Assembly (NCBI GenBank): GCA_032718475.1
Contig: JAUCBJ010005428.1
Span: forward strand, 1 to 54,863
Length of the DNA: 54,863 nt
Reading direction: 5' to 3'
From: Nemertoderma westbladi
Taxonomy: Eukaryota > Animalia > Xenacoelomorpha
The notes under the pieces: model-generated
The model's database searches: none
What the model was told of the DNA's origin: nothing
The model's input: the letters and a program-made list of their open reading frames with translations, nothing else
Shown: positions 810-35,620 of the stretch, one piece after another
Position numbering within the stretch: position 1 is the first letter of the stretch
Layout: each line of letters starts with the position of its first letter
Program-made: the position numbers and the translations under genes

Positions 810-2903
810 TACAGTGGTACAGAGCACCAGAGATACTCCTTGCGTCACACAGGTACGTTATAGAGCGTAGAGTACGTAGCTACCCGGTGGTACAGAGCAC
901 CAGAGATACTCCTTGCGTCACACAGGTATGTTATAGAGCATAGAGTACGTAGCTACCCGTTGGTACAGAGCACCAGAGATACTCCTTGCATCACACAGGT
1001 ACGTTATAGAGCGTAGAGTACGTAGCTACCCGGTGGTACAGAGCACCAGAGATACTCCTTGCGTTACACAGGTACGTTATAGAGCGTAGAGTACGTAGCT
1101 ACCCGGTGGTACAGAGATACTCATTGCGTCACACAGGTATGTTATAGAGCGTAGAGTACGTAGCTACCCGGTGGTACAGAGCACCAGAGATACTCCTTGC
1201 GTCACACAGGTACGTTATAGAGCGTAGAGTACGTAGCTACCCGGTGGTACAGAGCACCAGAGATACTCCTTGCGTCAGACAGGTACGTTATAGAGCGTAG
1301 AGTACGTAGCTACCCGGTGGTACAGTGGTACAGAGCACCAGATATACTCCTTGCGTCACACAGGTACGTTATAGAGCGTAGAGTACGTAGCTACCCGGTG
1401 GTACAGAGCACCAGAGATACTCCTTGCATCACACAGGTACGTTATAGAGCGTAGAGTACGTAGCTACCCGGTGGTACAGAGCACCAGAGATACTCCTTGC
1501 GTTACACAGGTACGTTATAGAGCAGAGTACGTAGCTACCCGGTGGTACAGAGCACCATGGATACTCCTTGCGTCACACAGGTACGTTATAGAGCATAGAG
1601 TACGTAGCTACCCGGTGGTACAGAGCACCAGAGATACTCCTTGCGTCACACAGGTACGTTATAGAGCGTAGAGTACGTAGCTACCCGGTGGTACAGAGCA
1701 CCAGAGATACTCATTGCGTCACACAGGTATGTTATAGAGCGTAGAGTACGTAGCTACCCGGTGGTACAGAGCACCATGGATACTCCTTGCGTCACACAGG
1801 TACGTTATAGAGCGTAGAGTACGTAGCTACCCGGTGGTACAGAGCACCAGAGATACTCCTTGCGTCACACAGGTACGTTCGTTATAGAGCGCAGAGTACG
1901 TAGCTACCCGGTGGTACAGAGCACCAGAGATACTCCTGGCGTCACACAGGTACGTTATAGAGCGTAGCTACCCGTTGGTACAGAGCACCAGAGATACTCC
2001 TTGCGTCACACAGGTATGTTATAGAGCGTAGAGTACGTAGCTACCCGGTGGTACAGAGCACCAGAGATACTCCTTGCGTCACACAGGTATGTTATAGAGC
2101 GTAGAGTACGTAGCTACCCGTTGGTACAGAGCACCAGAGATACTCCTTGCGCCACACAGGTATGTTATAGAGCGTAGAGTACGTAGCTACCCGGTGGTAC
2201 AGAGCACCAGAGATACTCCTTGCGTCACACAGGTACGTTATAGAGCGTAGAGTACGTAGCTACCCGGTGGTACAGAGCACCAGAGATACTCCTTGCGTCA
2301 CACAGGTATGTTATAGAGCGTAGAGTACGTAGCTACCCGTTGGTACAGAGCACCAGAGATACTCCTTGCGTCACACAGGTACGTTATAGAGCGTAGAGTA
2401 CGTAGCTACCCGGTGGTACAGAGCACCAGAGATACTCCTTGCGTCACACAGGTACGTTATAGAGCGTAGAGTACGTAGCTACCCGGTGGTACAGAGCACC
2501 AGAGATACTCCTTGCGCCACACAGGTATGTTATAGAGCGTAGAGTACGTAGCTACCCGGTGGTACAGAGCACCAGAGATACTCCTTGCGTCACACAGGTA
2601 TGTTATAGAGCGTAGAGTACGTAGCTACCCGGTGGTACAGAGCACCAGAGATACTCATTGCGTCACACAGGTACGTTATAGAGCATAGAGTACGTAGCTA
2701 CCCGGTGGTACAGAGCACCAGAGATACTCCTTGCGTCACACAGGTATGTTATAGAGCGTAGAGTACGTAGCTACCCGGTGGTACAGAGCACCAGAGATAC
2801 TCCTTGCGTCACACAGGTACGTTATAGAGCGTAGAGTACGTAGCTACCCGGTGGTACAGAGCACCAGAGATACTCATTGCGTCACACAGGTATGTTATAG
2901 AGC
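810..2903 (+). repeat. 73-bp tandem array (~28-29 copies) made of a MAPK15 exon 3' end ([19 protein letters not shown]) plus its splice donor
   Basis: Unit AGAGTACGTAGCTACCCGGTGGTACAGAGCACCAGAGATACTCCTTGCGTCACACAG|GTACGTTATAGAGCGT; period 73 (TGCGTCA at 841 and 914). It encodes the kinase activation/P+1 loop, and the phase-2 donor joins in frame to the exon at 8178 ([13 protein letters not shown]). Confidence 0.93.
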
Positions 2904-4974
2904 TTGTTGTTACTAGTGACCGCCTCTCCGACGAATTACACTACTACAAGTATACTATCGGGTCGATTTGGGTACAGAACGCCTTTGACTGGGCACCATG
3001 CATCTATATCGTTCTACTGTAATATAATACTTGAATGACCGTTGACAATGATTGTATGCTGTCCTAACCAGGCTGTACTAAATGATATATTTGGTTCAAA
3101 TAATGTATTTTGCTAATTTGGTACCCAGGGAATATATTGGGCGAAGTTCGATCATCTACAATATACCGATATTCAAGTCAGGGTGGGTACTTGGAATGTG
3201 GGTTAGTTCATTATGGGCAGGCGTCAAGCCGTCGACCATAATTAAAAAATAGCATATGGTAACCAAACCATACAGATCAATGGTACCGGTCACGCTGGTA
3301 TATGACAATGATATTACCGATGCCATTCCGGCAAAATCGGCCAAGTGACATTTTTGTCAAAATTGATGTTATATTGATATTATAGTATATATATAATTGA
3401 TATTATAGGATCGCATGCAATCTTTCACGTGGTAAAAACGGCTAAGTGATAGAGCCAATCAGTAAAAAGTTATTCAAATGTGGCATAACAGCCAAGTAGC
3501 AAGAGTACTATTTTACGCTTTGGCAGAAAATTTGCCATTCTTTTGCAAATCTTTTTGCCATTGTGCGGAGAACATCCTCATTGTTTTTAGGCGTTGTTGC
3601 AATTTCAAGAAATGAATACCTTCTGACAGACTGTGTAGTAGGTTTGTCAATATGCCAATATACGGCAACACAATATTGCCTCACAACGGTATCAATGCTT
3701 TGGCATTGTACTGTAATTTATTTCGAATTCCCCCGTTTCAAGGTAGGCTAGCCCTGTCTATGTCTATGGCCATAATGTCACCTGAAGTACTGCGTAAATA
3801 TCGTTATCAAACCAAATTCGATTTTTGCCGTTTAAAATTGTATGCTATTTGTATTTTTCGTCCCACCAGATGCGTTAGCACGAATGATTTTTAACGAAAG
3901 GTGTATCGTGATCATTTACGTTGAAAACCAGTATAGTTAAAACATTAACAGCTAATAATTCATAAGAAGCTACATAATAATGTATTTAGTTTTAATATCG
4001 TATGATATGAGGCATAACCTATCCCAATGGCGAATAGTAAAAAAATTACTAACAAAAATCTGATTATCTTAATTAAATTAAATTAATTAAATTTTGAAAT
4101 TTACCGTTTTTGCCAGAATGGCGACGTAGAATAAATATTAACTAAAGTAGTTTCGGTCAACCAAGAATAACTCAACAGACTTTCCGTTTCTTTTAAATGA
4201 TTCATAGAAAATATGATTTGACTAATGGATACGTATATTATTTTAAATATAATGTAAAAACACTACAATATAACACAATCATAAGATATTTATATGTACA
4301 AGCTCAATAACCATTAACATAGATAGTAATAATAGCATATCAATAATTAACACTTTCTTAATTAACTTACAAAATAAATCTAAATATTCCAGCCAAAATC
4401 GTAGGTAATATAATTATAATAAGCATTATTCTCCAAGGGGGTAATAGCAGGTCATTTACTAAAATTACTGTTAAACCGTCAAGACAACTTATAAATATAT
4501 TATAAACACAAACTTCTATAACTTTACTAATTCGTACTCGTAATATATGCGCAATTAGCGTAACAAAAACAACTCACTCAATGATATACGATGGTCGACA
4601 TAATCATTAAAACGTCCTCACATCGATTTCTGATACTCTCAAGCCGTTTGTAGTGGCCGCAACACGAATTCGAGGTTGGTGGACACACTGTCCTGGATTA
4701 ACATTGTTAATTCCAGTATTTAATCGGGATCTGTTTTAGTCACTCAGTTTGTGTGGTTTCGAATGCCGCACAAACAGTAACGGATTGGAAAGGTAAAATA
4801 TATTCTTTCGTAATTTTACAATTCACTTCGACGTTAAAACAAAGAAAATAAATGTTGCGAATTTCGAAATAAATATATAAGGCCCTAAGATATTTTCCAA
4901 GAACAAATAATAAGTGAATTGGAATGGTAGAATTCAGGGTTGTACCGGTACGTTTAGGTGGACATGACAGCTAG

Positions 4975-4975
4975 G

Positions 4976-5008
<33 letters not shown>

Positions 5009-5240: not shown

Positions 5241-5645
5241 CTAATTATGTTGGTTATCGGTAGTTTCTTGCACTTGTTTGAGTTTATCTATAAGAGCCTC
5301 ACCAAAGGTGAGTCTGTACTCGGGACTGACGTTATCTAGCAACTGGTAAATAGTTTCGTAGTAGGGGCTGTTCGTATCCGCGGTTGCTATGGTATCATAC
5401 TGGTAACTAACTACTTTGAACCCAGCGACAGTGAGTTCTACGCAGTATCGTCGACATTCTTTAGTTTCTACGTTTAAGTAGATGAGATCCTCTGACTGCG
5501 GGAGCGACTCGGATATCTGTACGTATCGGACCGCGAAGGCGATCTCTTTGACTGCTGCCGACGCCTCGATAGACAGGAGTTTTTCTTGTTCGCTCTCAAC
5601 TCGACTTCTGCGAGTTTCCGATGGAACTGGCGCCCTCGTGGACAT
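5241..5645 (-). CDS. GSKIP: GSK3-beta-interacting protein (DUF727), intronless CDS, nested antisense in a MAPK15 intron
   Basis: 134-aa ORF with EA..AVKEIAFAV, IYLNVETKE..RYCVELTVAGFKVV and YETIYQLLDNVSPEYR..FGEALIDKL, matching the GSKIP pattern. Confidence 0.9.
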   Translation of the reverse strand: MSTRAPVPSETRRSRVESEQEKLLSIEASAAVKEIAFAVRYVQISESLPQSEDLIYLNVETKECRRYCVELTVAGFKVVSYQYDTIATADTNSPYYETIYQLLDNVSPEYRLTFGEALIDKLKQVQETTDNQHN

Positions 5646-6467
5646 ATTGGCTGATTTGTGTATCGTTAATCGTATGTCTGTACCCTACCCAGGTACCGGT
5701 ATCTGGGTATGTAGGTATAAAATTAATCAACAACTACACCCAACTATCACTGTATCAATCAAAGTAATGCTGTAATGTACCGATAAGGGGGTAGGTCAGT
5801 AGGTAGGTATGAATCATATAAGTATAGAGGCTTATTGACTGATTGGCAGATTGGGGTCAACAGTAGATGTAGAATGGAAGATCATAAGTTCAGTCTAGCT
5901 GTACCTAATGTCAGACTGTAATCAGGTAATACTGTAATAATACTGTAATACAGTAATACAGGCACAGTAGTGTTGTACAGTACATGCACTGCACGCACAG
6001 TAAGCCTGGCGGCTGGCACATGGGCTTCCATATAACAGTATAACTACATTAACTGTATTTTATTAAGTTATTATTCTGTTATTACCTACAATAGAGCAAT
6101 ATGAAATAGAGGACCTACTGCATACTACAGTACTGTTACCGGTACAGAAGCAAGACGTACTATGTAGGCCTATATAATAGTAATAGTACGCCTTGTACAG
6201 AAGCAAAGAATAATCCAATACTGCTACAATATAGAACTACTGGTACTCGCAGTCGCAGTAAGGCAGACCGATGGTAGATGTTTCCACCTCAGGACTATCA
6301 CCTTCAAGCATAGTATCCACTGATTATGGGCCGAATTGTGTGGAGGTGACTGCTGAGCCCTTGGGTCCTGTCCTGAGTGATTTCATATCGCCTAACACAA
6401 TAAGCGACAAATAATAAGCATATAATATAATATAATATATATAATATAACATAATAGGCATTAATAT

Positions 6468-7316
6468 ACACGAAGTGGGGCCTTCGCGCAGCACGTGAAA
6501 TGAGTTAATGCTAAGTATCAACTCGAAAGGATTATAAAAACATAGGATAAGATTTTCCCGGAAAACGTTAACCCTCTAGCGGGAGACTGGGTAACTGAAG
6601 AAGGAAGGATTAGTTTCCCTACAAAGCCACAGCCTATGGTCTATTACATATCTACCAAGTTTCCGATTGACGGATCATAAATAACGAAATGTTGGAAGGT
6701 TTTCACTTTCATACATTTAGCCCTCTAGCGGCATATTAAAGAACTACGGATCGATCACCTTCCTCACAAAGACGAGGCATGTGGTCTAGTACATACCGGT
6801 ACTGTATATTCCAAAATTCAGCTTAAATAGATTAAGATCAAGGAATTCGCGAAGGTTATCACTTTCCTACATTTCGCCCTCTAGCGGCAGACTCGAAAAC
6901 TCCGGACCGATTACTGTCCACACAAAGACTTAGGATGTCTTCTAGTACATATATGACAAGTTTCAGCGTAATCTGATCATAAACAACTAAGTGGAAGAAT
7001 AATTTCACATTCGGGACATTTCGCCCTCTAGCGGCAGACTGGAGAACTGCAGACAGATTAGCCTCCTTTGAAATTTACAGCTAATGGTCTAGTACATACT
7101 TCCCAAGTTTCAGCTTAAACGGATTAAAAGCAAAGAAATGGGTGGCCATTTAATGTTTAGACATGTGGCCCTCTAGCGGGAGACCATTGCGCTGATGGTG
7201 TCTGAAAGTCTCTCAAAAATCTCAACTTTTGATCATATTGATACCTACAAATTTTCAACTTGGCAGCTTTAAATCCGACAAAGTTATTAGCATGTCAAAA
7301 TCGTAACGACGACGAC

Positions 7317-7348
<32 letters not shown>

Positions 7349-7460
7349 CAACGACGACGACGACGACGACGACAACTATTTGCATAAATTGACCCACCCC
7401 CTAACAGTGTCAATTCGCTAAGGCTCCGCCAACTTCGTGGCTCGCCCCACATTACTTGTT
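6468..7460. mobile_element. Non-autonomous Helentron-associated (DINE-1/HINE/pearl-like) element
   Basis: Five degenerate ~150-bp internal repeats (CCCTCTAGCGG at ~6572, 6721, 6877, 7024, 7169), then a (CGA)n microsatellite at 7305-7374, with short inverted GTGGGGC/GCCCCAC ends. Related end motifs occur at ~33590 and ~46612. Confidence 0.5.
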
Positions 7461-8177
7461 ATTTAAAGTTCGTTCGTTGATGTACCTACTGCTATAATCA
7501 GATAATAGCGGTCTACTCAAAATACGTTAAGATTTTAAACGATTGTCGTTAGATCTGTAGATTGAGGCAATTTTAATTTAATATCAGGTCCTTGCTCAAG
7601 TAAAAATGAAGATACAATATGGTTAAAACAGTATAACGGTTAAATTTATTTTTTCTGGCGTGTACTGCCAACTCTGAATGTTTTCATACCATGAATATTA
7701 TAAATCTAATATCCCAGGGAACTAGATAGCACAAGTATTATTGATTTGTTCCTTATATTGACATCTAGGATTGCAAAGCGCGATTTGATTAAACAGTCAT
7801 TTCCAATCTGTAACGCTCTGTGCCTGTACCTAAAGTGGAACACAGTCCACCAAACCAATCAAAGAGCAGTCGTCAGTCACTACTAACTGCAACTTAATAC
7901 TGCAGCACAACGATTGTTATTAATACATCGGCCCAACATCGCATCTGTTAAGTGATTGCGTGGCGTAACGATATATTATTCTATTCTATTTTATTGTTCC
8001 ATCGTGTCCATCAAAATAACCAGTCCATGCTACGCACTCACAGCATTCCCATCTTTCCATCGGCGTCAGTCCAGTCTTGATTAACTCTTTTATTCCTCAA
8101 TGGAGAAGTCTACAAATATTTTTCATCTGGTATAAAATACTGGATGTATAATAAATGTTTCCGTTTTTGTTTCTAAG

Positions 8178-8327
8178 GTATACGAAAGGAGTAGACATGT
8201 GGTCTCTGGGTTGTATCCTAGGGGAGATGGTTTCAGGCAAACCTATATTCCCTGGTTCGTCTACCCTCAATCAAATCGAAAAAATCATGGGGACAATACC
8301 GGCACCGGACAGAGACGATATACAGAG
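8178..8327 (+). CDS. MAPK15: MAPK15/ERK7-like kinase exon (subdomains IX-X)
   Basis: AAG acceptor; [49 protein letters not shown]; donor AG|GTAAGG; phase 2 to 2. Confidence 0.92.
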
Positions 8328-9180
8328 GTAAGGCACGTAGCTGGGTTCCAAAATTCTAGAACGGTTCCCATTTTGTTTTTAACTTAAATAAGCGAATACT
8401 GATGTGTCATGAAATCCTATGTAGACAGGTAGACTAGACCCCAAACTGCGCGTATCGTGTTAGGGCCCAGGCCAGGTTTTTCGGGAGGATTTTTTAACCC
8501 CTCCCCTACTTTATATCTGTCATTTCTGGTGACCCAATGCCGAAATTTGGGCCCGTAGTCGGGCTTGGGTTCCCATGAGGTTCAAAATCAAAAAGTTCGC
8601 TTCTACCGCTACCATGCAACGTTATTTTTACGTTAGAATTTTGATTAAATTAAATATGACCTTTCCTAACAGACACGCTCTCGAAATATAGGGCAATATA
8701 GATCTTTTTGAAAATTTGAAAGTTGTTAGTTTACTATAGTATTGGGTGATAGAGTTTGAATATGTTATATTTTCAGGGAAAATTTACAAACATTATATAT
8801 GACAATCAGATGAGATGAGTATATAATACTATATCCTGATTTAGCCAAACTCACGGCCAATCTATAAATATATTCATGGTTTAGCCATAAGTTTGATTGT
8901 GCTACAGTAGACAGATTGTACGGCACTACTAAAGTAAACTATTATTACAGTATGTATTTAATGATATCGGGAACCCCCTTCCTCACGCCCCCGGTCACAA
9001 ATCGTTACGAGATAGCAAACACCACACCTTCTTTCCAACTTGAAGTCATTTATGGATGGTCCCTTATTACTTACAACTTCAACAGTGTTGTCCAGTATAT
9101 GCACACTACAACTCGTATTGTTTAATCGTTGTTTATTCTAAATCAAATAATCCTACGTTTTGCTACATTTCTTGTTGCAG

Positions 9181-9363
9181 TATAAAATCACCATACGCCC
9201 TTTCCGTACTCGAGAAAGTCAACCCTCGACAGAAGAAGTCCCTCTCTGAAATTTGTCCGGGAGCTTCCAGCGATGCGTTAGATCTAATGGAACAGTTGTT
9301 ATTGTTTAACCCGGACAAAAGGATAACAGCCGAACAAGCATTGCAACACCCTTATGTGGCTAG
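9181..9363 (+). CDS. MAPK15: MAPK15/ERK7-like kinase exon (subdomain XI)
   Basis: TTGCAG acceptor; IKSPYALSVLEK...DALDLMEQLLLFNPDKRITAEQALQHPYVA-R; donor AG|GTGAGC. Confidence 0.92.
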
Positions 9364-10157
9364 GTGAGCACTAACAGTAGACCAAACATTGTGACACCAT
9401 GGCCTACTTAAATACGGCCTGCCAAATGGCAGCAAGGCCAAAAAATTAGTGGGTCGATTTTTCAAAGTTGTGTTGGTTTATATATTTGGATAAAGACAAT
9501 CAAGTTGTTGTATTTTATCTGAAATTTTATGGAGATTTCAAATATGCAATTGGTTTTGCCATACCTTTTTTAGTTTTCGAAATATTTCACGAAAACGAAT
9601 GGGTACCCCAAAAGTGGGTTCAAAAAGTGGGTTCACCATGAAAGTTTCAATAATGCAGAATCTTTAAAACGCACCAGTCACCCATCATTTGCGACCTATA
9701 AAGGTTCTCAAGGGTGGCGAACGTGATGGAAATATTTTCCTAACGAATGGTTTATCTGGTATGCTACTTTTCACTGGGTGCCGAATGTTGGTTCACCCTG
9801 AAAATTTCATTTTTTGGATACATATAATAATACTCATTTATTTGCCATGATTTACAATATACAGTATGTACATCTAAGTAGGCCTATTCTAAGTATTTTC
9901 TAGATGATTCGAATGTACCCAGAATTATAATTTTCACTGGGTAGTAAATGTGGGTTCAACATGAAAATTTCAGTTTTTTTTGGAACCTTCAATACTCTTA
10001 ATCAATACTCTTGATAGTGCGGCCATTTACGATCCATGTAGGTTTTCTTTGACTGGGAATCCAATGCAACTATTTTTTCGATGGGGCTTATCACCTTGAA
10101 TGTTATTTATCACTGAATTTTAAATGTGGGATGAACATGGAAAGTATTATTTTATTA

Positions 10158-10743
10158 GGCCCCCCTCACACGGAGCAACTTGTTTCTGCAACTTGTTTGT
10201 GAAACTTGTTGCTGGACCCCCTCACACACAGAAACTTGTTGCACTGCAATTTGTTTCCGAAACTTGTTTCTGTGTGTGAGGAGTCCAGCAACAAGTTTCT
10301 GCAACTTGTTTCTGAAACTTGTTGCTGGACCCCTCACACACAGAAACTTGTTGCTTCAACTTGTTTCTGCAACTTGTTTCAGAAACTTGTTTCAGCAACT
10401 AGTTGCTGGACCCCCCTCACACGCAGAAACTTGTTGCTCAAGAAAATAACAATTATTTTAAAACAAATAGCTAACATGTCCAGTCATTTATATATAATAT
10501 CACATCACTCAAATTATCGAATATTAGTTCTAATATAAAAATTGGATGTAAAAAAGGTTTTTAAAAAAGTTTCTGGGAATATAACTTCCAGCAACTTGTT
10601 GCTGGATCCAAGTTTCGGACTTTTCGGACTTTTCAGACTTGTTTCGGAAACAAGTTGCATCAACAAGTTTCTGGTGTGATGGGGTCCAGCAACAAGTTTC
10701 AGAAACAAGTTGCAGAAACAAGTTGCTCCTTGTGAGGGAGGCC
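10158..10743. mobile_element. PIF/Harbinger-type MITE nested in the P-like element
   Basis: TIR GGCCCCCCTCACACGGAGCAACTTGTTTCTGCAAC / GTTGCAGAAACAAGTTGCTCCTTGTGAGGGAGGCC; TTA TSD on both sides; many internal AACTTGTT repeats. Confidence 0.85.
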
Positions 10744-10870
10744 TTAGTATTCAACATTAATTGTTTTATATTATTTCATTCAGTGTTATAATTAATAAAT
10801 AATATGAATAATAAAATAGATTTAAACAGTTATTATTGCAGTGTATTAAATATCTGGAAATTTCAAGTTA

Positions 10871-12751
10871 TTATGTTTCCTTGCTGCTTTGGCGAATTTT
10901 GAAAACCTTCACGCTATCTTGCCGGACGGACTGACTCTCGATTATTGCTTTATTGTTGGCAAAAATGTTACTGATTGTCTTGAAAATAATTAGTTTGATG
11001 GTTTCTTCATGATCACCACAACTAAACGTCATATCAAAATTACTACAAAGGAAATCCAAAACTTTGATTGCTACTTTACGATAGTTCTTTGCTGCCTCCA
11101 AATTCTTCTCCCCTATCCACAGTACTTTGAAACATTCACGTACTAGGTTATTCATAGTGAAAGGAGGAATTGTCAGTTTACCACGATTAAGTAAGTCAAC
11201 ATAATGATGATCTTGGACTAAGTTTGTTGTCAAACCTGATGTACATAATGCACAGTTAACATCGGAGAATTTAGAAGTTTGTATGTTATATGGCCAGCTA
11301 CATATATATGCAAATTTCTTTTGTAGTATCATCCAAATCACTGCAGTTGTTCGATATCAATGTTTCTATCTCAGAAATTTCATCCCGAGTTTGTATGGTG
11401 AGCAATCGATCCGAGGTCGAATCACTATGAAGCCAGTCACATAAACTATTCAAAAATGCATATTTCCCGTCATTCAGAACAATAGCATTGCCTATGGGGT
11501 CTGGATGAAAACGTTCTCCAACATTTACCACTAACCACCAATGATGAATCAATTGTAGAAAACTGGCACTGCAGACCTCTTCTGGGAAATAGAACTCACA
11601 TGTCGGAGTGTGAGGTCTGAGGGACTGATACACTGATTCCGGATAAATGGTTGGATATGCCCCTTTAATTAATATTGGTCTCTGCAAACAAACAGAAATA
11701 CAATGCAATATAATATACCGGTAATGAAATATAATATTATAAATTTAACTAAAATTAAACAAAACTAACAATGATATATGTTGATATACAATGATATATA
11801 TATATATATGATATATATTATAACAAAATATAATTATTATACACTATTCCAGAACATAGATAAAATAAAAAATATAATGTTCTAGAACATATAGCTAGTC
11901 ATTTTTCATATTTAAAATGGCTTGTAATAAAAAAAACTACATTTTTTATAACATAAATCATTGTTACCATGCAAAAAATGTAAACTGTTATTATACCGTA
12001 TCATCAATATTTTTGGTCATTAATGTATTCTGAAACAGTTTAAACCTGAAATATCAATGTTTTCACATTTTTTATAATTACAAAAGATACTAGTTACCAT
12101 AAAAAAAAACAAATCTACTAATGTTCTAGAACACAAAAAAATGCAGTATTTTTAGAAATTAAAAAATATGTTGGGCCTAATATACAATAAATCATATATC
12201 AAAAATTAAACCAAAAAATAACTAGCTAGTCAATTAGCTAATGTTCTAGAACACAATATTTTTTTTGAAAAATGTTGCAATGAAGTCGGTTGTAATATTA
12301 CAATATAAAAAGTACATCATTTCATTAATTGATATCAAAATATAAAATGCGACTGCATACGGAACTCTAGCCAAAAAAAATGGAGCAAAAACTAGCTACT
12401 ACAAAAAAATCCCGGTTATGGGTACACATACAATAAGTAGTGCCAATAAATTAATGGTTGAAAAAATGACATGAGGTGTAGACATGGCGAAGAAGTACCC
12501 TTATATCTACTTACATGTTCATTTCGCTTTAGAAACTTCTCTTCGAAGTGCAATATGCAGATTTTCGAATATTTTGTTGGGGACCAATGCTTTTGGGTTT
12601 CGGAATCTAATCGATGTAACATAAATTGCTGCCACTGTGCCAATTCTTCGCGAACTAACGGGAAGCTGAACATCGATTGTGAAGGCCCATCGATGTTGGT
12701 TTGAGAAATAGACCCAGAGCTGCAGCCGTATACGCAGCACTTTCAAACCAT
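10871..12751 (-). pseudogene. THAP-domain P-type transposase remnant (spliced)
   Basis: MV*KCCVYGC...MFSFP...W...SKICILHFEE (C2CH THAP, TGA at codon 3). A GT-AG intron at 11682-12514 joins it to RPILIKGAYPTIYP (AVPTIF-like motif). 10871-11341 carries a CxxC...LNRGKLTIP C-terminal segment. The catalytic core appears largely missing. Confidence 0.8.
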
Positions 12752-13724
12752 CTTCTAGAGTTAATCTTCTTGAACCAACTTATAGTATTAAGCGTAAATA
12801 TAATAATAAGTACTGCACTGAAATGTTTATAGTGGGGGGATTATTATAATTATTATAATAATCTAGAAACCCTTGTTGCTATATCCCACATGAAAACGAA
12901 CAGCGCATTAAAATACGCATTATACACAGAATTTAAGAACAAACATTGAATTGTAGATTCTAGAATGTGCATCATGTCGAATGATGGATGGAGGAAAATA
13001 GCATAGTGACGCCACTGTGCCAATTTTTTGACTTGGCTTTCATCAGATACCAGGTAATTGGATCATGGAGAAAATATTTGCATTGGATTCCCAGTCATAT
13101 AAAACCTACCTGGATCGTAAAAGGCCGCACTATCATGAGTATTGAAGGTTTTCAAAAAATAACTGTAATTTTCATGTTACATTTAGTAGCCAGTGAAAAA
13201 TAGCATACTGGGTTCAATCGAATCATCTAGAAAATACTTTCATTGGATTCCCTGTGTAATCAAATCTCCATAGATTGTAAATCATGGCAAATAAATGAGT
13301 ATTATTATATGTATCCGAAAAATGAAATTTTCATGTTGAACCAACATTCGGCACCCTGTGAAAAGTAGCATACCAGATAAACCATTCGTTAGGAAAATAT
13401 TTCCATCACGTTCGCCACCCTTGAGAACCTTTATAGGTCGCAAATGATGGGTGACTGGTGCGTTTTAAAGATTGTGGATTATTGAAACTTTCATGATGAA
13501 CCCACTTTTGGGGTACCCATTGGTTTTCATGAAATATTTCGAAAACTGAGAAAGGTATGACAAAACCGATTGCATATTTGAAATCTCCATAAAATTTCAG
13601 ATAAAATACAACAACTTGATAGTCTTTATCCAAATATATAAACCAACACGACAACTTTGAAAAATCGACCCACTAATTTTTTGGCCTTGCTGCCATTTGG
13701 CAGGCCGTATTTAAGTAGGCCATG

Positions 13725-14111
13725 GTGACACCCTTATGTGGATAGGTGAGCACTAACAGTAGACCAACCATTGCAATACCCTTATGTGGCTAGGTGAGCA
13801 CTAACAGTAGACCGAGCATTGTAACACCCTTATATGGCGAGGTAAGCACTATCAGTAGACCGAGCATTGCCACACCCTTATGTGGCTAGGTGAGCACTAA
13901 CAGTAGACCAAACATTGTAATACCCTTATGTGGCTAGGTGAGCACTAACAGTAGACCGAGCATTGTAACACCCTTATGTGGTAGGTAAGCACTAACAGTA
14001 GCCCAAACATTGTAACTCCCTTATGTGGCTAGGTGAGCACTAACAGTAGACCGAGCATTGTAACACCCTTATGTGGCTAGGTGAGCACTAACAGTAGACC
14101 AAACATTGCAA
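13725..14111 (+). repeat. 48-bp tandem array (~8 copies) of the MAPK15 exon end ALQHPYVA-R plus splice donor
   Basis: Unit CATTGCAACACCCTTATGTGGCTAG|GTGAGCACTAACAGTAGACCGAG matches 9339-9390. It is continuous with the real exon end once the transposon is removed. Confidence 0.92.
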
Positions 14112-15251: not shown

Positions 15252-15260
15252 ACGAACGAA

Positions 15261-19790: not shown

Positions 19791-20550
19791 GAAAAATAAG
19801 TGCCTTATTTATTAGTTAATTCTTACTTATCTGACTTCACTGAAAAATAGTTAAATAATATATTTGATTTATTAACGGATTTATAACCAACTAGGTTTAT
19901 TCCTAAAGTGTCGGACTTAGATTAATAAGCGACACCGGGATAAAGTTAACCGGTACTACATGGCACCTGCAATGGGGAGGTGAAAAGGAAATTTAGTGGA
20001 ATAAAACTTGAAAAAGAAATCGTTTTTTTCCTCTCACGACCGACCGTGTCAGCATATATTTATTAGTTAACAAGGCTTACAAGTCTAAACAAGGTTAACA
20101 AGTAACTACTTGACACATTAAAAATCAGCTTTATAAGTTTATATCAGATAATTAGGGTTTTAACTCGATTAATACCATAACATGAGAGTAATGAGTGGCG
20201 TATATACAGTATATTTATGAAAGACCACCTGTTGGTTTTACGTAACTCACACAATGTTATTTATAATTTACACTGTGTAGCTTTACTATTATACTGCGCT
20301 ACTCGTGTAGCATTTATTGCTACAATAACGACGCCAATGAGGTACGAATCGATAACCAGCTCTATAAGCTCCGCTCTCAACAATAAAAACCAGGATCGTT
20401 CAATTGATCCTATATCCTCTTGAAATTGTTATACTACGAATGATATTGTACACAATGTATTGTTGCTCTCAGGACCTTGCGTAACACTAGAATAATAGCG
20501 TAAATTAAACCTTAAACAGTATCATTGGAAGTTTAATTGTTTAATTGAAT

Positions 20551-21628
20551 GTCGGATTCGGGGTCCTATAGCTAACCCTAACAACTCGGTTCCCACAGTG
20601 TCGGATTCGGGGTCCTATAGCTAACCCTAACAACTCGGTTCCCACAGTGTCGGATTCGGGGTCCTATAGCTAACCCTAACAACTCGGTTCCCACAGTGTC
20701 GGATTCGGGGTCCTATAGCTAACCCTAACAACTCGGTTCCCACAGTGTCGGATTCGGGGTCCTATAGCTAACCCTAACAACTTGGTTCCCACAGTGTCGG
20801 ATTCGGGGTCCTATAGCTAACCCTAACAACTTGGTTCCCACAGTGACGGATTCGGGGTCCTATAGCTAACCCTAACAACTCGGTTCCCACAGTGTCGGAT
20901 TCGGGGTCCTATAGCTAACCCTAACAACTTGGTTCCCACAGTGACGGATTCGGGGTCCTATAGCTAACCCTAACAACTCGGTTCCCACAGTGTCGGATTC
21001 GGGGTCCTATAGCTAACCCTAACAACTTGGTTCCCACAGTGACGGATTCGGGGTCCTATAGCTAACCCTAACAACTCGGTTCCCACAGTGTCGGATTCGG
21101 AGTCCTATAGCTAACCCTAACAACTCGGTTCCCACAGTGTCGGATTCGGGGTCCTATAGCTAACCCTAACAACTCGGTTCCCACAGTGTCGGATTCGGGG
21201 TCCTATAGCTAACCCTAACAACTCGGTTCCCACAGTGTCGGATTCGGAGTCCTATAGCTAACCCTAACAACTTGGTTCCCACAGAGACGGATTCGGGGTC
21301 CTATAGCTAACCCTAACAACTCGGTTCCCACAGTGTCGGATTCGGAGTCCTATAGCTAACCCTAACAACTCGGTTCCCACAGTGTCGGATTCGGAGTCCT
21401 ATAGCTAACCCTAACAACTCGGTTCCCACAGTGTCGGATTCGGGGTCCTATAGCTAACCCTAACAACTCGGTTCCCACAGTGTCGGATTCGGGGTCCTAT
21501 AGCTAACCCTAACAACTCGGTTCCCACAGTGTCGGATTCGGGGTCCTATAGCTAACCCTAACAACTCGGTTCCCACAGTGTCGGATTCGGGGTCCTATAG
21601 CTAACCCTAACAACTTGGTTCCCACAGA
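20551..21628. repeat. 49-bp minisatellite (~22 copies)
   Basis: Unit GTCGGATTCGGGGTCCTATAGCTAACCCTAACAACTCGGTTCCCACAGT; period 49 (20551, 20600). Confidence 0.97.
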
Positions 21629-22144: not shown

Positions 22145-23508
22145 CTGTGGCCATGGGACTGTAGGTAGAGGGTCTGTGGCCATGGGACTGTAGTTAGAGG
22201 GTATGTGGCCATGGGACTGTAGTTAGATGGTATGTGGCCATGGGACTGTAGGTAGAAGGTCTGTGGCCATGGGACTGTAGGTAGAGGGTCTGTGGCCATG
22301 GGACTGTAGGTATAGGGTCTGTGGCCATGGGACTGTAGGTAGAGGGTCTGTGGCCATGGGACTGTAGTTAGAGGGTATGTGGCCATGGGACTGTAGTTAG
22401 AGGGTATGTGGCCATGGGACTGTAGGTAGAGGGTCTGTGGCCATGGGACTCTAGGTAGATGGTCTGTGGCCATGGGACTGTAGTTAGAGGGTATGTGGCC
22501 ATGGGACTGTAGGTAGAGGGTATGTGGCCATGGGACTGTAGGTAGAGGGTCTGTGGCCATGGGACTGTAGGTAGAGGGTCTGTGGCCATGGGACTGTAGG
22601 TAGAGGGTCTGTGGGCATGGGACTGTAGTTAGAGGGTATGTGGCCATGGGACTGTAGGTAGAGGGTCTGTGGCCATGGGACTGTAGGTAGAGGGTCTGTG
22701 GCCATGGGACTGTAGGTAGAGGGTCTGTGGCCATGGGACTGTAGGTAGAGGGTATGTGGCCATGGGACTGTAGGTAGAGGTTCTGTGGCCATGGGACTGT
22801 AGTTAGAGGGTATGTGGCCATGGGACTGTAGTTAGAGGGTATGTGGCCATGGGACTGTAGGTAGAGGGGCTGTGGCCATGGGACTGTAGGTAGAGGGTAT
22901 GTGGCCATGGGACTGTAGGTAGAGGGTCTGTGGCCATGGGACTGTAGGTAGAGGGTCTGTGGCCATGGGACTGTAGGTAGAGGGTATGTGGCCATGGGAC
23001 TGTAGGTAGAGGGTCTGTGGCCATGGGACTGTAGGTAGAGGGTCTGTGGCCATGGGACTGTAGGTAGAGGGTCTGTGGCCATGGGACTGTAGGTAGAGGG
23101 TATGTGGCCATGGGACTGTAGGTAGAGGGTCTGTGGCCATGGGACTGTAGGTAGAGGGTCTGTGGCCATGGGACTGTAGGTAGAGGGTATGTGGCCATGG
23201 GACTGTAGGTAGAGGGTCTGTGGCCATGGGACTGTAGGTAGAGGGTCTGTGGCCATGGGACTGTAGGTAGAGGGTCTGTGGCCATGGGACTGTAGGTAGA
23301 GGGTCTGTGGCCATGGGACTGTAGGTAGAGGGTCTGTGGCCATGGGACTGTAGGTAGAGGGTCTGTGGCCATGGGACTGTAGGTAGAGGGTCTGTGGCCA
23401 TGGGACTGTAGGTAGAGGGTCTGTGGCCATGGGACTGTAGGTAGAGGGTCTGTGGCCATGGGACTGTAGGTAGAGGGTATGTGGCCATGGGACTGTAGGT
23501 AGAGGGTC
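22145..23508. repeat. 29-bp minisatellite (~47 copies)
   Basis: Unit CTGTGGCCATGGGACTGTAGGTAGAGGGT; the long minus-strand ORFs are a by-product of the repeat. Confidence 0.97.
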
Positions 23509-24508
23509 TAAAATGTCAAAACGTCTAAAAAACAGAATCAAGTGTATGCCTCCATCAGTAAAACTAGGTACATATTGAACCGAACTTAAATGCCCAATCG
23601 ATAATGATAATAAATCATTTCTCGATGATAAAATGTAACAAAATTACATACATAATTGTGTGCAAAGGTAACTTTTCAGCGTTAAAGAAACTTGTTTATT
23701 GTAAACCTCTCTCGCTACGCTCGTTCTGCACATAAATAAACTTGGGTCATAACACAGCAAAGTGCTACTTTGCACACTATGACAGAATGATGTAAATAGT
23801 TATTTGGGGGGGGGGGGGGGGGGGGGGGTTATATGGCATATGGTTTGAATTTGAATAATTGTTTGTTGGGGGATGAATAATTATTGTTCTTCATGGTGGA
23901 GGGATGTAAATTTGTGCTACAGTAATATATATATAATAATTTTTCACCAAATATATTTGGTGAAAAATAATTTAATTTGGGGTTAAATCATCTAATATGA
24001 TTTAACATTAATAGCATTATACAGTATTAGTAGCCTATAATAATTTACGAATAACCATCTCTGCGGAAAGGAGCAGTTCACAGCGGCACATTAATTACTG
24101 CATTTACTTGAAGTAAATAGTTAATACAGCTGTACTGTAGTACATAGTACCGGTACTTGTCAGCATGTTGTATTTATTTTTGTTATTGTTATTATAATTC
24201 AATTTAATTGGCCTTTTATATATTGAAACTAAACTGGTGTACTTATACCTGTAGATAGGCCTACCACCTACAGTCTGACAGTATGTATGAGATAGTACAG
24301 TAGTACTGCAGTACGGTTATCTTGTGCAGTAGTACTAGTACATCAGTAGTAGGCCTACTGCAGTGCGGTTATCTTGTCCAGTCTGCCAGTAGTACCAGAC
24401 CAGAGTACCGGCAAACCAGTATGAGTGACAGACATACAGAAGAAGACAATGTAAAGAAGAAATAAAATTGAAGTTATCAAAAATCGACCAAACTGCCAAT
24501 GCATAACC

Positions 24509-25252
24509 ATGACCGATAACGATAAATCGGGATCCCCCGCCCAACAAAGACAACAAGACAACAACATGTCCACCGACATGTTTGACGATGAACAGCCTAC
24601 CGGTACACCAATGGAGGTCGACACTTGCGAGAATTGCCCATCGCAATTTCTCGGGATGGATGTAAAGGATCTTCCTCTCTCCCTAATTATTACCAACGTA
24701 CCGGATACCGTGTACAAAGAACCAACCCATAAACAGGCTTTCGAGAAATTATGGAGGGAGTTCTGCGACCCGGGCCATAGCCCCTCTTTTATATATTTTA
24801 AGAGCTTCAATCGTGTTCGAGTTGCGTTCGATAGCCCACTTGAATCAACCAGGGCTAGGATCGCCATGCATAACTTCTCATGGAGACCCAACCCCGAAAT
24901 GGGCACGGTTGCGACTCTTAAAGTTTACTTCGCCCAACCTTGCGAGCAATACGGACGACCCAGTCTGGAGCCCCCCGCTCTGGAGAAACAATGGCTCATC
25001 TCTCCGCCCTGTTCCCCGCCCGTGGGATGGGAGCCTGTCAGAGAGACGCAGCCCAACATCGACTTCCAACTGATGGCGGCGTTAGCCGGTTTGACTCCTG
25101 GCCAGTCGCACGAGGTTGTTCCGTCGACCGCAGCACTCCCCGCCGTGGTTATTGACGCTCCCACACAGGAGTCATCCTACAGGGATGGCGACGACAAAGA
25201 CACACATGCTCGTCCCCCAATCGTACAGACTAAATGCCCTCCTAGAAATTAA
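24509..25252 (+). CDS. RCAN: Calcipressin / regulator of calcineurin, intronless CDS, nested on the same strand as the host
   Basis: RRM-like region (FIYFKSFNRVRVAF, LKVYFAQ), LEPP..KQWLISPPCSPPVGWEP, PAVVI (PxIxIT-like) and C-terminal TKCPP; AATAAA at ~25260 and ~25312. Confidence 0.93.
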   Translation: MTDNDKSGSPAQQRQQDNNMSTDMFDDEQPTGTPMEVDTCENCPSQFLGMDVKDLPLSLIITNVPDTVYKEPTHKQAFEKLWREFCDPGHSPSFIYFKSFNRVRVAFDSPLESTRARIAMHNFSWRPNPEMGTVATLKVYFAQPCEQYGRPSLEPPALEKQWLISPPCSPPVGWEPVRETQPNIDFQLMAALAGLTPGQSHEVVPSTAALPAVVIDAPTQESSYRDGDDKDTHARPPIVQTKCPPRN

Positions 25253-28587: not shown

Positions 28588-30177
28588 ATGAATTTCTATT
28601 GTAATAGTATTATTTCAACATTTTATAGGACCTACCGCTTTGATTTAAGAGATTTAAGATTTAATGACAGTTGTCTTACACTAGTCAATAAGACAATGAA
28701 TGGAAATAAAGATACTTCTATCTCTGAGGCTGATGCGGCAGTTGGGTCGAATGTGTTTGCGCAATTGTTTAGGGCACAAGCTCTTCAAAACATATTTTGT
28801 TATTTAGACACTAATGATCAATTAGAGTTTTGTAAGGTGTCGAAATTCTTTCAGAAAATTAGTCCATATTTGCTCCATGGTGTTCGTAAGCTAATTCTGC
28901 CATACCGTTGCTCAAATGAGAATAGTTGTACCTTGTATCATCCCACCACTGTGACGGAGTTGCGAGCTATTCTTAGTAAATTCTCATTTCTCCGCGAGCT
29001 TGAGTTCACTGATCCTGCAAGTGGCGAGTCTACCGTGGAAGTGTTGAGGGCAGTCTCGGAAACTAACCCTCATCTAAATAAATTGTATATTTCCTTCAAC
29101 CACAAACATCATCTAGACAAAGAGTCACTCCGGGCAATGCCGTACCTCTTCCCCAGTGTTACGCATCTCACAATTTACGGACACGAGGAAAACAAGTTGG
29201 GGAGGATGATTTGGGAATTGAAAGAAAGGGAGTTGTTTATTATACTTAGTGGAATTGGATTGCAATTAAGATATCTGAATATCTGTGGCCATTTCGACTG
29301 TAAATCCTTTAGTAAAGTCGCGCTACCAAAATTAGAAACCCTGATTATCTTACTCGCAAACGGGGACCGCTTTCGTCCCAATTCATTTTGCGATATTGGA
29401 AAAACTTCATCGAGTCTTAAGGAAATTACTTTGAACGGCCAGAAAAAAGGTCTCGAACAACTGTATCCACACCTGAACCCCGACAATCTCGCTCCCGTCG
29501 ATCCACGGGATGCTCTTAAGATCATCGAATTTGAATCAATTAAGAAATATCTCCCTCAGTTAAGAGTGAAGGTGATTCGCGAACGAACCCCTTTCTATAG
29601 GGAAGATATTCTAACAATATATCGAGATAACAAACAGAAGAAGGTCGAGTTAGATATCCATTTCACCGCTCCTGGGGATGAGGACGATATGGATGACGAG
29701 GCTTGGGATACCATGTATATTTACCTTCCAATATGTCACTGTATTACCACATTCAAAGCGTCTCATATATATGATAGATCTACGATGGAGATATTCGCTA
29801 ATTCTATCTGTTTGTTTTCTGTTTTGGAATATTTAGACGTAACTTTTTCTATAGACGATGACAGGCAACCTAGTGATGATAGCTCGGATTTCCTTGACAC
29901 GATGTTGGGGAATCTCCCCGCTACTATGAGGGAACTTCGAGTCGATGAAAAGTACAACTTTGATTGTTACCACGACAACGTAGTTGATGGTTGTGAGTCT
30001 TGCGGAGTGGGCCCACCTCAAAGAATCTGGCCTCATTCAGTCGATCTATTAGTTGCATCGCGGTATCTACTAACCAAAGTCCATCTATCGGCTCCCAATG
30101 GCTCAGATGTCATTCAATATGCCTCAAACACTCACCCGAATATCGATTGGAGCTGGACGACTCTAGTCGGGCATTGA
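28588..30177 (+). CDS. F-box/LRR (RNI-like) protein, single coding exon; true start may be ATG 28696
   Basis: 529-aa ORF with an N-terminal F-box-like ALQNIFCYLDTNDQLEFCKVSKFF followed by LxxLxL repeats (FLRELEF, LNKLYI, VTHLTI, LRYLNI, LETLII, LKEITL, LEYLDV, MRELRV). Confidence 0.75.
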   Translation: MNFYCNSIISTFYRTYRFDLRDLRFNDSCLTLVNKTMNGNKDTSISEADAAVGSNVFAQLFRAQALQNIFCYLDTNDQLEFCKVSKFFQKISPYLLHGVRKLILPYRCSNENSCTLYHPTTVTELRAILSKFSFLRELEFTDPASGESTVEVLRAVSETNPHLNKLYISFNHKHHLDKESLRAMPYLFPSVTHLTIYGHEENKLGRMIWELKERELFIILSGIGLQLRYLNICGHFDCKSFSKVALPKLETLIILLANGDRFRPNSFCDIGKTSSSLKEITLNGQKKGLEQLYPHLNPDNLAPVDPRDALKIIEFESIKKYLPQLRVKVIRERTPFYREDILTIYRDNKQKKVELDIHFTAPGDEDDMDDEAWDTMYIYLPICHCITTFKASHIYDRSTMEIFANSICLFSVLEYLDVTFSIDDDRQPSDDSSDFLDTMLGNLPATMRELRVDEKYNFDCYHDNVVDGCESCGVGPPQRIWPHSVDLLVASRYLLTKVHLSAPNGSDVIQYASNTHPNIDWSWTTLVGH

Positions 30178-30802: not shown

Positions 30803-30964
30803 GTTTCACAATGCCGCTGATGAGATTGTCTTGAACCATGACGTCATTCCACCAATCAACGATGACATTCAACTCAGTGTCGACGAATACCGGCAAAAAC
30901 TCTATGAGATGATAGTCGAGAAGAAAAACCAAATGAGAAGAATAAAAAGGGAAACAGTGAAAAG
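30803..30964 (+). CDS. MAPK15: MAPK15 exon (post-kinase region)
   Basis: R-FHNAADEIVLNHDVIPPINDDIQLSVDEYRQKLYEMI..., the characteristic MAPK15 LSVxEYRxKLY segment; phase 2 to 2; donor GTATGA. Confidence 0.9.
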
Positions 30965-33477: not shown

Positions 33478-33531
33478 TATTATGGATATGGTAACTCTCG
33501 ACAGAATTACAATCAGCCCTCCACTTATACG
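33478..33531 (+). CDS. MAPK15: MAPK15 C-terminal extension exon (predicted, 54 bp)
   Basis: TTTCCAG acceptor, YYGYGNSRQNYNQPSTYT, donor GTGAGT; phase 0 to 0. Confidence 0.68.
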
Positions 33532-33938: not shown

Positions 33939-34034
33939 GTGAGTCACATTAATTAACCGACCAATGTTCAATATATTACACTTATTAACAGTATCGGAAT
34001 TATAACAATTTATGATATAATTAATAGCCCGAGT

Positions 34035-34463
34035 TCAATTTATTTTGTATTCATCACCATTACCTTTGGTACACTTGGTGTCCAAACTGTGTTTATCGTT
34101 GTAAACAGCCTGTAATATTTCTACTCTCTCTTTATTCCAAACTATTGCGTGGTAGGCCTCCGTTACGTTAGTTGCTAGGTAACCAACGCCAAACAGACCT
34201 AGAAGATTGGCCAATCTCGGCTGGCTCACTGTACATTTACACGTCTCCATGGTAACCCTCGGGTAGTAGTGCAGGTAGTTAACGCACATTTCTTGGTCCA
34301 GACCCATGCCGCTGACTGTGACGTCATTACGATTTCTGGTGTCATAGAAACATTCCGTTCTCATCTCATCCCCTGGGTACACTGTGACCGGGGGTAGGAT
34401 GGTGTGTATCAGTTGGAACCAGGTAGAGAAGTGGGGGTCCTTGTCTAAGGTAGACCAATTACC
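34035..34463 (-). CDS. DBH/TBH-like copper type II monooxygenase, exon 3
   Basis: TTGTAG acceptor; DPHFSTWFQ...PGDEMRTECFYDT...EMCVNYLHYYP (CuM Met); stop at 34035. Confidence 0.88.
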   Translation of the reverse strand, partial: GNWSTLDKDPHFSTWFQLIHTILPPVTVYPGDEMRTECFYDTRNRNDVTVSGMGLDQEMCVNYLHYYPRVTMETCKCTVSQPRLANLLGLFGVGYLATNVTEAYHAIVWNKERVEILQAVYNDKHSLDTKCTKGNGDEYKIN

Positions 34464-34574
34464 CTACAATACAAACATTTTTGTTAGAATTACTGTTATA
34501 TGGAATGTGAGTTAATATCAGTAAATTAAGTCGAAATTCCTTATAACAAACAAGTACAGGTAGTGTGATAAACC

Positions 34575-35620
34575 CTTGTGTTAAACATTTATTACCACAT
34601 ATAAGCTTCTCCTACCTTGTGGAAACATTTGTTACCACTGACCTCTCCTACCTTGAGGTAAACATTTCTTACCACTGGCCTCTCATACCTTGTGTTGAAC
34701 ATTAATTACCATACCAATATAAGCTTCTATTACCTTGTGGTAAACATTTGTTACCACATATAAGCTTCTCCTACCTTGTGGTAAACGTTTGTTACCTCTG
34801 ACCTCTTTTACCTTGAGGTAGCATTTCTTACCACTGGCCTCTCATACGTTGTGTTAAACATAGTTATTAATATAAGCCTATCTTACCTTGTGGTAAACAT
34901 TTCTTACCACTGGCTTTTCCATTCTTGTGGTAAACATTTCTTACCACTGGCCACCACACATCTCTTCTATCTTGTGGTAAACATTTGTTACTAATGGCCT
35001 CTCCTTTCTTGTGGTAGACATTTGTTAATACTGGCCTCTCCTACCTTGTGGTAAACATTTGTTACTACTGGCCTCTCCTACCTCGTGGTAAACATTTCTT
35101 ACCACTGGCCTCCCATACCTTGTGTTATGCATTAGTTACCAATATATACGCCTCCCTCCCATACCTTGTGGTAAACATTAGTTGCCACTGGCCTCTCCTA
35201 CCTTGTGGTAAACATTTGTTACTACTGGCCTCTCCTACATTGTGGTAAACAATTGTTTCTATTGGCCTCTCCTGCATTTGTAAACATTATTGTTACCACC
35301 CATCTCTCATTTGGTAAACATTTCTTACCACTGGCCTCTCATACCTTGTGTTAAACATTAGTTACCACTGACCTATCCTACCTTGTGGTAAACATTGGTT
35401 GCCACTGACCTCTCTTACCTTGAGGTAAACATTTGTTACCACTGATCTCTCATACCTTCTGTTAAACATTAGTTACCACTGACCTATCCTACCTTGTGGT
35501 AAACATTGGTTGCCACTGACCTCTCTTACCTTGATGTAAACATTAGTTACCACTGGTCTCTCATCCCTTGTGTAAACATTTGTTACCACTGACCTCTCCT
35601 ACCTTGTGGTAAACATTTGT
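34575..35620 (-). repeat. Degenerate ~37-bp tandem array (~27 copies) of the monooxygenase exon 2 end plus splice donor
   Basis: Minus-strand unit ACAAATGTTTACCACAAG|GTAGGAGAGGTCAGTGGTA; the first copy is the real exon end (TNVYHK|GT). Confidence 0.85.

Follow-up and report, generated by a model that had tools for sequence, protein, structure and literature searches.

Three tandem arrays in DNA of Nemertoderma westbladi (contig JAUCBJ010005428.1, positions 1-54,863 of the forward strand; this whole stretch of 54,863 nucleotides is called the window) repeat the end of an exon together with its 5' splice site and the start of the following intron, and belong to the known minisatellites that span exon-intron boundaries, of the amphioxus mirage or human F7 type. 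They are probably ordinary neutral minisatellites at exon ends, tolerated because splicing picks the first donor of each series.

Structure of the arrays and of their genes

Repeat analysis confirmed arrays with units of 73, 48 and about 37 bp where a sequence-only reading had placed them (Table 1), lengths that fall in the 10-160 bp range of boundary-spanning minisatellites. The composition proposed for each unit, exon end followed by GT and intron start, held as well (56 + 17, 25 + 23 and 19 + 18 nt). The array 1 unit carries 56 exon nucleotides, translated as 19 amino acids, and 17 nucleotides starting GTAYGT, made up of 14 intron nucleotides headed by the GT donor and 3 junction nucleotides; in array 2 the 25 exon nucleotides (LQHPYVAR) precede 23 intron nucleotides starting GTGAGC, and in array 3 the last 19 exon nucleotides (TNVYHK) precede 18 starting GTAGGA. 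In each array the first unit lies across an authentic exon-intron boundary, inside the window for arrays 2 and 3 and, as contigs show, upstream of it for array 1. Later copies of the donor are referred to as echoes.

Table 1. Arrays, exons and mobile elements located in the window
Feature	Position	Strand	Unit or evidence
End of very high-copy dispersed element, inserted into array 1	1-813		contig depth
Array 1	about 814-2903	+	73-bp unit x 28.7, head-to-tail minisatellite
MAPK15 exon (YTKGVDMWS...DDIQ), next after array 1	8178-8327	+	tblastn, Pfam, X4 contig piece 8176-8325
MAPK15 exon (...QALQHPYVAR), donor 9363/9364 heads array 2	9181-9363	+	tblastn, Pfam, X4 piece 9179-9365
Array 2, first unit with true exon end, donor and 23 intron nt, plus beginning of first echo	about 9337-9397	+	
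DNA transposon, presumably P-like, inside first echo of array 2	9398-13724	-	4.3 kb
Array 2, main part	about 13721-14111	+	48-bp unit x 8.1
Next MAPK15 exon (FHNAADE...ETVK)	30803-30964	+	tblastn
DBH-like monooxygenase, last coding exon	34035-34463	-	Cu2_monoox_C 71-152
Array 3	34574-35621	-	about 37-bp unit x 27.5
DBH-like exon, donor 35603/35602 heads array 3	35603-35781	-	Cu2_monoox_C 9-66
DBH-like first coding exon (DOMON + Cu2_monooxygen)	44050-45121	-	
MAPK15 last coding exon (predicted)	45799-45999	+	tblastn E 5e-7, 7e-5 to two MAPK15/ERK-like relatives

The location and unit of array 1 stood as first described; the exon that heads it did not, since the window begins downstream of the authentic exon and donor. 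At 815 stands only a partial unit, right behind the terminus of a very high-copy mobile element. Over 730-813 the summed contig depth is 1e5-6e5, compared with about 25 for unique DNA, and contigs over the element end break at 813 and continue into unrelated flanks. Positions 4-610 of the element can be aligned (score 220; shuffles 24-45) to diverged sequence at about 49.9-50.5 kb; no partner end of the 1-813 element was found within the window. The element terminates in ...TTTTACA, which looks like a splice acceptor in front of the partial copy. Hence the reading of 815-852 as a complete exon of 38 nt behind a genuine acceptor at 813-814 was rejected, the acceptor-like end belonging to the element. 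Loose contig ends at 870 are identical in the four runs X1, X2, X3 and X4 and encode GLDADSGQLT, and contigs in three DNA-like runs join the true exon to an array 1 unit. An origin of the unit as a whole-exon or cDNA-derived duplication with a spliced exon-exon junction was also discarded, the exon being contiguous in DNA through EYVATRWYR.

Array 2 is present as described, and the gap between its two parts proved to be a transposon insertion. The element has long inverted ends starting CATGG, a 7-bp target duplication and a THAP domain at 12419-12742, and we take it to be a member of the P-like superfamily. An X3 contig shows consecutive array 2 units (joint 9398 to 9337). Mobile elements were thus inserted later into two of the arrays.

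Array 3 occupies 1029 of the 1139 nt of its intron. Its donor is supported by Pfam Cu2_monoox_C, which extends across both DBH-like exons, and the MAPK15 donors by tblastn of MAPK15 relatives; the homologue searches returned animal proteins only, the nearest named ones 55-75% identical. The arrays do lie in two genes on opposite strands, MAPK15 (+) and the DBH-like gene (-). Their arrangement needed correction, as the DBH-like gene, judged from the predicted last coding exon of MAPK15, lies within one of the MAPK15 introns.

The chance that the arrays are products of assembly is close to nil. No listed contig crosses a whole array, so that array lengths are as assembled, and the comparison with run contigs that bears on this reading covers arrays 1 and 2 only. 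Against it, copies differ among themselves in patterned ways, arrays 1 and 2 appear as repeats in DNA contigs from two studies, and unique contigs of X1 and X2, runs from two studies, end about 30 nt inside an array, at 2874 for array 1 and at 9374 for array 2. The array 1 intron-to-exon junction has a summed contig depth of 700-2000 in X1, X2 and X3 and of 0 in X4. Relative to unique DNA, X2 has a greater summed depth across array 1 than X1, depth being no measure of copy number.

Probable choice of the first donor

Donor use could be read from a 3112-nt X4 contig in which the window segments 870-926, 8176-8325 and 9179-9365 adjoin one another (record positions 2171-2227, 2024-2173 and 1837-2023). 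In this contig each MAPK15 exon end occurs only once, no echo is present, and true exon letters precede 870. The run is listed as 'DNA?'; its cover is limited to exons, which points to RNA. On the testimony of this one presumably RNA-derived contig, the MAPK15 transcript likely leaves at the first donor in arrays 1 and 2. Contigs drop rare forms, so minor use of echoes may have gone unseen.

Read-through past the array 2 donor meets a stop at the very next codon, and past the array 1 donor the frame is shifted and a stop follows in the second unit. In array 3 a stop stands ahead of 24 of the 25 located echoes, and the sole stop-free in-frame echo carries GG in place of GT. Selective tolerance, with the first donor giving a normal mRNA, had been offered as one reading of the arrays and agrees both with the X4 contig for arrays 1 and 2 and with the stops that nearly all later donors bring. 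The many competing donors predicted with it exist in the sequence, whereas none was seen in use in the one spliced contig. An mRNA that exits at the most upstream donor, as array 3 presumably allows too, encodes an unchanged protein; later donors would nearly always add a stop, so their products would be rare or destroyed.

It is very improbable that the echoes are functional, whether as decoy donors whose binding of U1 would tune long transcripts or shield them, or as a source of unproductive isoforms. The idea would fit the retention of GT in 29/29 array 1 echoes within the window and in 8/8 of array 2 (6 GTGAGC, 2 GTAAGC), the match of some echoes to the U1 consensus at 7/9 positions, against 6/9 for the true donor, and the length of MAPK15 introns, the exon presumably spliced to the array 2 donor beginning 21.4 kb past it. 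However, homogenisation alone would be expected to retain GT, which was kept in 20 and lost in 5 of the 25 located array 3 echoes; two arrays are broken by mobile elements, and the one spliced contig contains no echo.

Local donor excess and proposed seeding of the arrays

Tandem arrays make up 22% of the window. Thirteen of the 16 lie at no located splice site and three span a donor, where uniform seeding predicts 0.19-0.26 (P 0.0007-0.002; P 0.008 when 15 kb of transposon DNA is removed from the target space), values to be taken as post hoc, the window having been picked for its cluster of arrays. Pure coincidence in a minisatellite-rich genome, with no real donor excess, would draw on that array content, on the very many windows read, among which P near 0.001-0.01 will turn up, and on an exon list that is partly predicted and whose completion would raise the expectation. 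Three arrays were nevertheless observed against about 0.2-0.45 expected under every null tried, and we consider coincidence improbable.

A local excess of arrays at donors is thus seen. The difference between donors and acceptors is not significant: arrays were found at 3/14 donors and 0/13 acceptors (Fisher one-sided P 0.12), and three of three on the donor side has a chance of 1 in 8. When 10 donors were scanned with 24-mers (up to 6 mismatches, within 6 kb; several predicted boundaries were 1-3 bases off), two of them, 9363 and 35603, had local echoes. The scan agreed with the remark that no array clearly copies a real acceptor, as none of 13 acceptors had a local echo within 6 kb and two had one distant match. 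Donor-centred stretches have a G+C content of 0.41-0.43, against 0.37-0.38 around acceptors, and among the allowed seeds with at least 45% G+C, donors were straddled 1.7-2 times as often as acceptors; array copy number did not correlate significantly with G+C (rho 0.41, P 0.11). As full cause of the donor excess G+C was rejected. The excess amounts to about 7-15 times the uniform expectation, of which G+C accounts for only about twofold, and this weighs against the neutral explanation preferred here. No genome-wide donor-versus-acceptor count for minisatellites was found in the literature searched, most subscription journals lying outside it; PMC10078293, as far as its account of short repeats and splicing QTL goes, has no bearing on the question.

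It is unlikely that duplications are seeded at donors throughout the lineage by a process linked to splicing or transcription (R-loops, pausing or the binding of U1 at 5' splice sites). Such a process would be favoured by the three arrays of 16 at donors (P 0.0007-0.008), by their absence from acceptors and by a fourth array (52813-54863), whose 28-bp unit carries AG/GTGAG behind an open candidate exon; about 0.5-1.4% of random 28-bp units should contain this motif. The amphioxus mirages, which recur in several genes and whose mechanism their authors call unclear in the account of PMC3087553, point the same way. Yet the window is post hoc, the donor-acceptor comparison is not significant, unit lengths and exon share (19-56 nt) differ with no common junction, most arrays in the window lie away from located donors, and acceptor-side mirages are described (PMC3087553). 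The lineage-wide nucleation at donors and the part of U1 or R-loops in it that the sequence-only reading had suggested are unsupported here. A stronger form is likewise unlikely: tandem duplication would start preferentially at transcribed 5' splice sites, many donors (3 of about 14 here, perhaps 4) would bear ladders of their own copies, and these would draw in transposons and lengthen introns, as genome-wide donor-only mirages that the splicing machinery itself causes.

Under the neutral explanation, slippage or break repair at short homologies would have made one duplicate of a 37-73 bp stretch straddling the exon end, as in any minisatellite, and the duplicate would then have expanded and been turned over in the same way as the window's 13 further arrays. 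An exon/intron match of 11/12, exactly 48 nt apart, speaks for this in array 2, but may be a by-product of the duplication. In array 1 the match is only 3 nt long with 3 extra bases; what the intron of array 3 originally looked like is beyond reconstruction. The donor excess would reflect a filter and composition rather than a donor-targeting machine: seeds wholly within exons would be purged, those at exon edges would survive, acceptor copies would be likelier to disturb splicing, and donor edges are richer in G+C.

Known relatives and implications

Mirage minisatellites have been described in amphioxus Adh3 and in the globins BflGb6 and BflGb9, at both exon boundaries and with normal splicing reported (PMC3087553). 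The same account already proposes a model of intron gain, so that the suggestion made earlier for these arrays has a precedent. The present case differs in its animal, in having donor-side arrays only within the window and in two arrays being split by transposons. In the 37-bp VNTR of human F7 intron 7 the first unit likewise spans the donor and identical pseudo-donors follow it, and use of the most upstream one was shown experimentally (Borensztajn et al. 2006, PMC1557585). As described there, the F7 unit has 4 exon nucleotides and 5-9 copies, against 19-56 exon nucleotides and 9-29 or more copies here, and scanning was demonstrated by mutagenesis in mammalian cells, whereas first-donor use was here read from one contig. 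Minisatellites of human CBS intron 13, 6-16 intron 2, LAMIN B2 and PDGF intron 4 also reiterate the donor in the following intron, 10-25 times (PMC1557585; for CBS also PMC1395315). The next two copies are also used in CBS and 6-16 according to PMC1557585, which speaks against wholly silent echoes; none was seen here in one contig. Variable internal tandem repeats of about 30 bp at exon-intron boundaries of human segmental duplications have been proposed to create introns (PMC2812944). They are similarly minisatellites at boundaries, although many of those described are exonic or give alternative transcripts, while here the presumed mRNA contig contains none and there is no sign of a new intron.

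Beyond mammals and amphioxus, the arrays would add three examples from nature in which the first of as many as 29 intact donor copies is chosen. They also carry a warning for annotation, array 1 yielding some 25 false kinase-exon matches and one false acceptor. With three arrays in two genes, this genome is well suited to ask whether splice sites seed such repeats or only let them survive, a question left open for mirages. Donor-directed seeding, if true genome-wide, would connect splicing with local mutation and with the growth of introns.

Gene setting and unit anatomy

The window is animal DNA with a G+C content of mostly 31-47%, and its + strand bears the central and 3' portions of MAPK15 (ERK7/8), the introns of which contain at least six nested genes, five of them with an apparently unbroken coding region. 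In the sixth, MYG1, Pfam profile positions 1-130 and 128-318 are matched in two different frames and the frame shift coincides with a 13-bp tandem duplication (42066-42091), the alternatives being a broken allele, a pseudogene or an assembly error. A strong donor-like site at 46017, 15-20 nt past the predicted MAPK15 stop, might possibly belong to an intron in the 3' untranslated region.

Genes and donor-spanning arrays in the window
Feature	Position	Strand	Basis
MAPK15 exon	8178-8327	+	tblastn with MAPK15 relatives
MAPK15 exon	9181-9363	+	tblastn with MAPK15 relatives; 46-64% identity to MAPK15 proteins (protein homology search)
MAPK15 exon	30803-30964	+	tblastn with MAPK15 relatives
MAPK15 last coding exon (predicted)	near 45800-46000	+	tblastn with MAPK15 relatives
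GSKIP (nested)	5244-5684		
Peroxiredoxin (nested)	17888-18517		
Calcipressin (nested)	24509-25249		
F-box protein (nested)	28696-30174		
MYG1 (nested)	41489-42584		
DBH-like monooxygenase, three exons (nested)	34035-45121	-	
Array 1	815-2903	+	
Array 2	9337-9397, 13725-14111	+	
Array 3	34574-35621	-	

Tandem Repeats Finder confirmed the three donor-spanning arrays where the sequence-only reading had placed them, and the anatomy of the units was obtained by cutting each array at the donor. The 73-bp unit of array 1 consists of 56 nt of coding sequence (19 protein letters) followed by GTAYGT, and the window holds 29 of its echo donors, that is, intronic copies of the exon end and donor (18 GTACGT and 11 GTATGT). 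In array 2 the 48-bp unit joins the final 25 nt of the exon that ends at 9363 to 23 nt of intron, and the true donor is followed by 8 echoes. The unit of array 3 (~37 bp) joins the final 19 nt of a DBH-like exon (end at 35603) to 18 nt of intron. Of the 25 echoes that were located, 20 keep the GT, and the array occupies 1029 of the 1139 nt of its intron. The donor of array 3 is well placed, because the Pfam profile divides over two exons, positions 9-66 in the exon ending at 35603 and 71-152 in the following one.

The sequence-only reading had to be amended at the start of array 1, where the copy at 815 is not the authentic exon. It has the look of a complete small exon preceded by an acceptor, yet it lacks the EYVATR part present in every later unit. 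Contigs of four sequencing runs (X1 to X4, the first three DNA-like) were aligned to 730-926. Up to base 813 the summed depth in X1-X3 was between 1e5 and 6e5, and their contigs over the sequence ending there continue into unrelated flanks. This sequence is the terminal part of an element present in very high copy number; a diverged relative of the element's interior lies near 49.9-50.5 kb. One contig from each of the four runs reaches 870, and the letters upstream of it, identical in all four, give GLDADSGQLT when read in frame and make the TEY activation motif whole. The true exon thus runs unbroken in DNA, at a site upstream of the window, which rules out that the unit arose from cDNA or from a whole exon. 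One unit (1283-1363) carries an 8-bp duplication at the position that, in the first unit, holds the element insertion; excision, or recombination with the end of the element, may have left it. An extremely high-copy element also lies at 6340-7660, where summed depth in the DNA-like runs is as high as 6e5.

That the arrays are an artefact is scarcely credible. In X1 and X2, which come from two studies, unique contigs end roughly one word length into arrays 1 and 2 (at 2874 and 9374), an X3 contig contains consecutive array 2 units, and the intron-to-exon junction of array 1 has a summed depth of 700-2000 in X1-X3. One sample among the runs may be the source of the window itself. None of the contigs listed for arrays 1 and 2 spans a whole array, and array lengths are as assembled.

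At 9398-13724 array 2 is interrupted by an element that has long inverted ends, a 7-bp target duplication and a THAP domain, and that we take to be P-like from its superfamily features. A reading frame with a YADD motif at 15252-16360, with no Pfam match at E 0.01, is likely a truncated non-LTR retrotransposon; since it lies within a 27-bp array, the window has three arrays that are broken up by mobile elements. Decayed Helitron-like or Pif1 helicase sequence occupies 36700-41300 in the first DBH-like intron (Pfam Pif1_2B_dom at 40756-41082).

Arrays at donors and base composition

Tandem arrays of at least 100 bp number 16 and cover 21.7% of the window. When every array was reduced to a single unit placed randomly in the window, 0.19-0.26 arrays spanning a donor were expected against 3 observed (P 0.0007-0.002, in a window selected for its cluster and with a partly predicted exon list). 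P was 0.008 once 15 kb of transposon DNA was removed from the target and 0.007-0.012 when any exon boundary counted. Coincidence is, on these figures, improbable. A process directed at donors, seeding tandem duplication there, is also unlikely: arrays lie at 3 of 14 donors and 0 of 13 acceptors (P 0.12). G+C is 47% in exons versus 35% in non-coding DNA and is higher in donor-centred than in acceptor-centred stretches, and seeds of at least 45% G+C straddle donors about twice as often as acceptors; a link between G+C and array copy number was not significant. Composition contributes to the donor excess and accounts for part only, thus a local excess at donors remains, partly unexplained.

Three further arrays have splice-like units. 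The 28-bp array at 52813-54863, with AG/GTGAG in most copies, is a candidate fourth donor array, its unit being partly palindromic and its flank perhaps a transposon end; just upstream there is a pyrimidine-rich AG, together with an open stretch of 71 nt (~52751-52821). The 29-bp unit at 22145-23509 contains a weak donor-like AG/GTAGA, and the 49-bp unit at 20550-21627 has an acceptor-like CACAG at its end, preceded by CTAAC; at neither of these two was an exon located.

Donor choice and array turnover

Run X4 was taken as RNA by inference, no run being recorded as such; its cover is absent in 6 of 30 bins, all six intronic. In a 3112-nt X4 contig, pieces 8176-8325 and 9179-9365 adjoin, and in an X4 contig that matches it in length, depth and strand, 870-926 directly adjoins piece 8176-8325. 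There is thus a single copy of each MAPK15 exon end, with exit at the first donor both times; piece 9179-9365 matches two letters beyond the exon end (9364-9365), with which the predicted next exon also begins. The first donor would accordingly be used at arrays 1 and 2, on one contig of one run in which a retrocopy is possible and minor forms are hidden. By translation, reading past the true donor meets an immediate stop in array 2 and a frameshift and then a stop in array 1, and a stop precedes 24 of the 25 echoes of array 3. The single stop-free, in-frame echo of array 3 has lost its GT, a suggestive case (n=1). Later donors would mostly be dead ends, and a function for the echoes is very doubtful.

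The three arrays probably arose and turned over as ordinary minisatellites do, with splicing acting as a filter. A short duplication across an exon end would keep the first donor and the mRNA intact and so be free to drift and expand; a duplication within an exon would be purged, and one at an acceptor would be likelier to interfere. An exon/intron match of 11/12, one unit apart, at array 2 may be the seed of the duplication or a by-product; the array 1 junction shows a 3-nt match and three extra bases. Of the two proposals of the sequence-only reading, tolerance agrees with first-donor use at arrays 1 and 2, while lineage-wide duplication nucleated at 5' splice sites finds no significant donor-versus-acceptor bias.

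Known cases

Borensztajn et al. (PMC1557585) describe a 37-bp VNTR in F7, where mutagenesis identified the most upstream donor as the one chosen, and give 6-16, CBS, LAMIN B2 and PDGF as further cases. Amphioxus mirages, according to PMC3087553, affect 5' and 3' boundaries alike in globin and Adh3 genes; that paper calls them possibly general in cephalochordates, terms their mechanism unclear and presents an intron-gain model. Boundary repeats in human duplications are treated in PMC2812944. These papers have thus already put in print the recurrence within a lineage, the argument from tolerance and the idea of intron gain. The literature searched, with most subscription journals and supplements outside its scope, yielded no genome-wide donor-versus-acceptor count of minisatellites.
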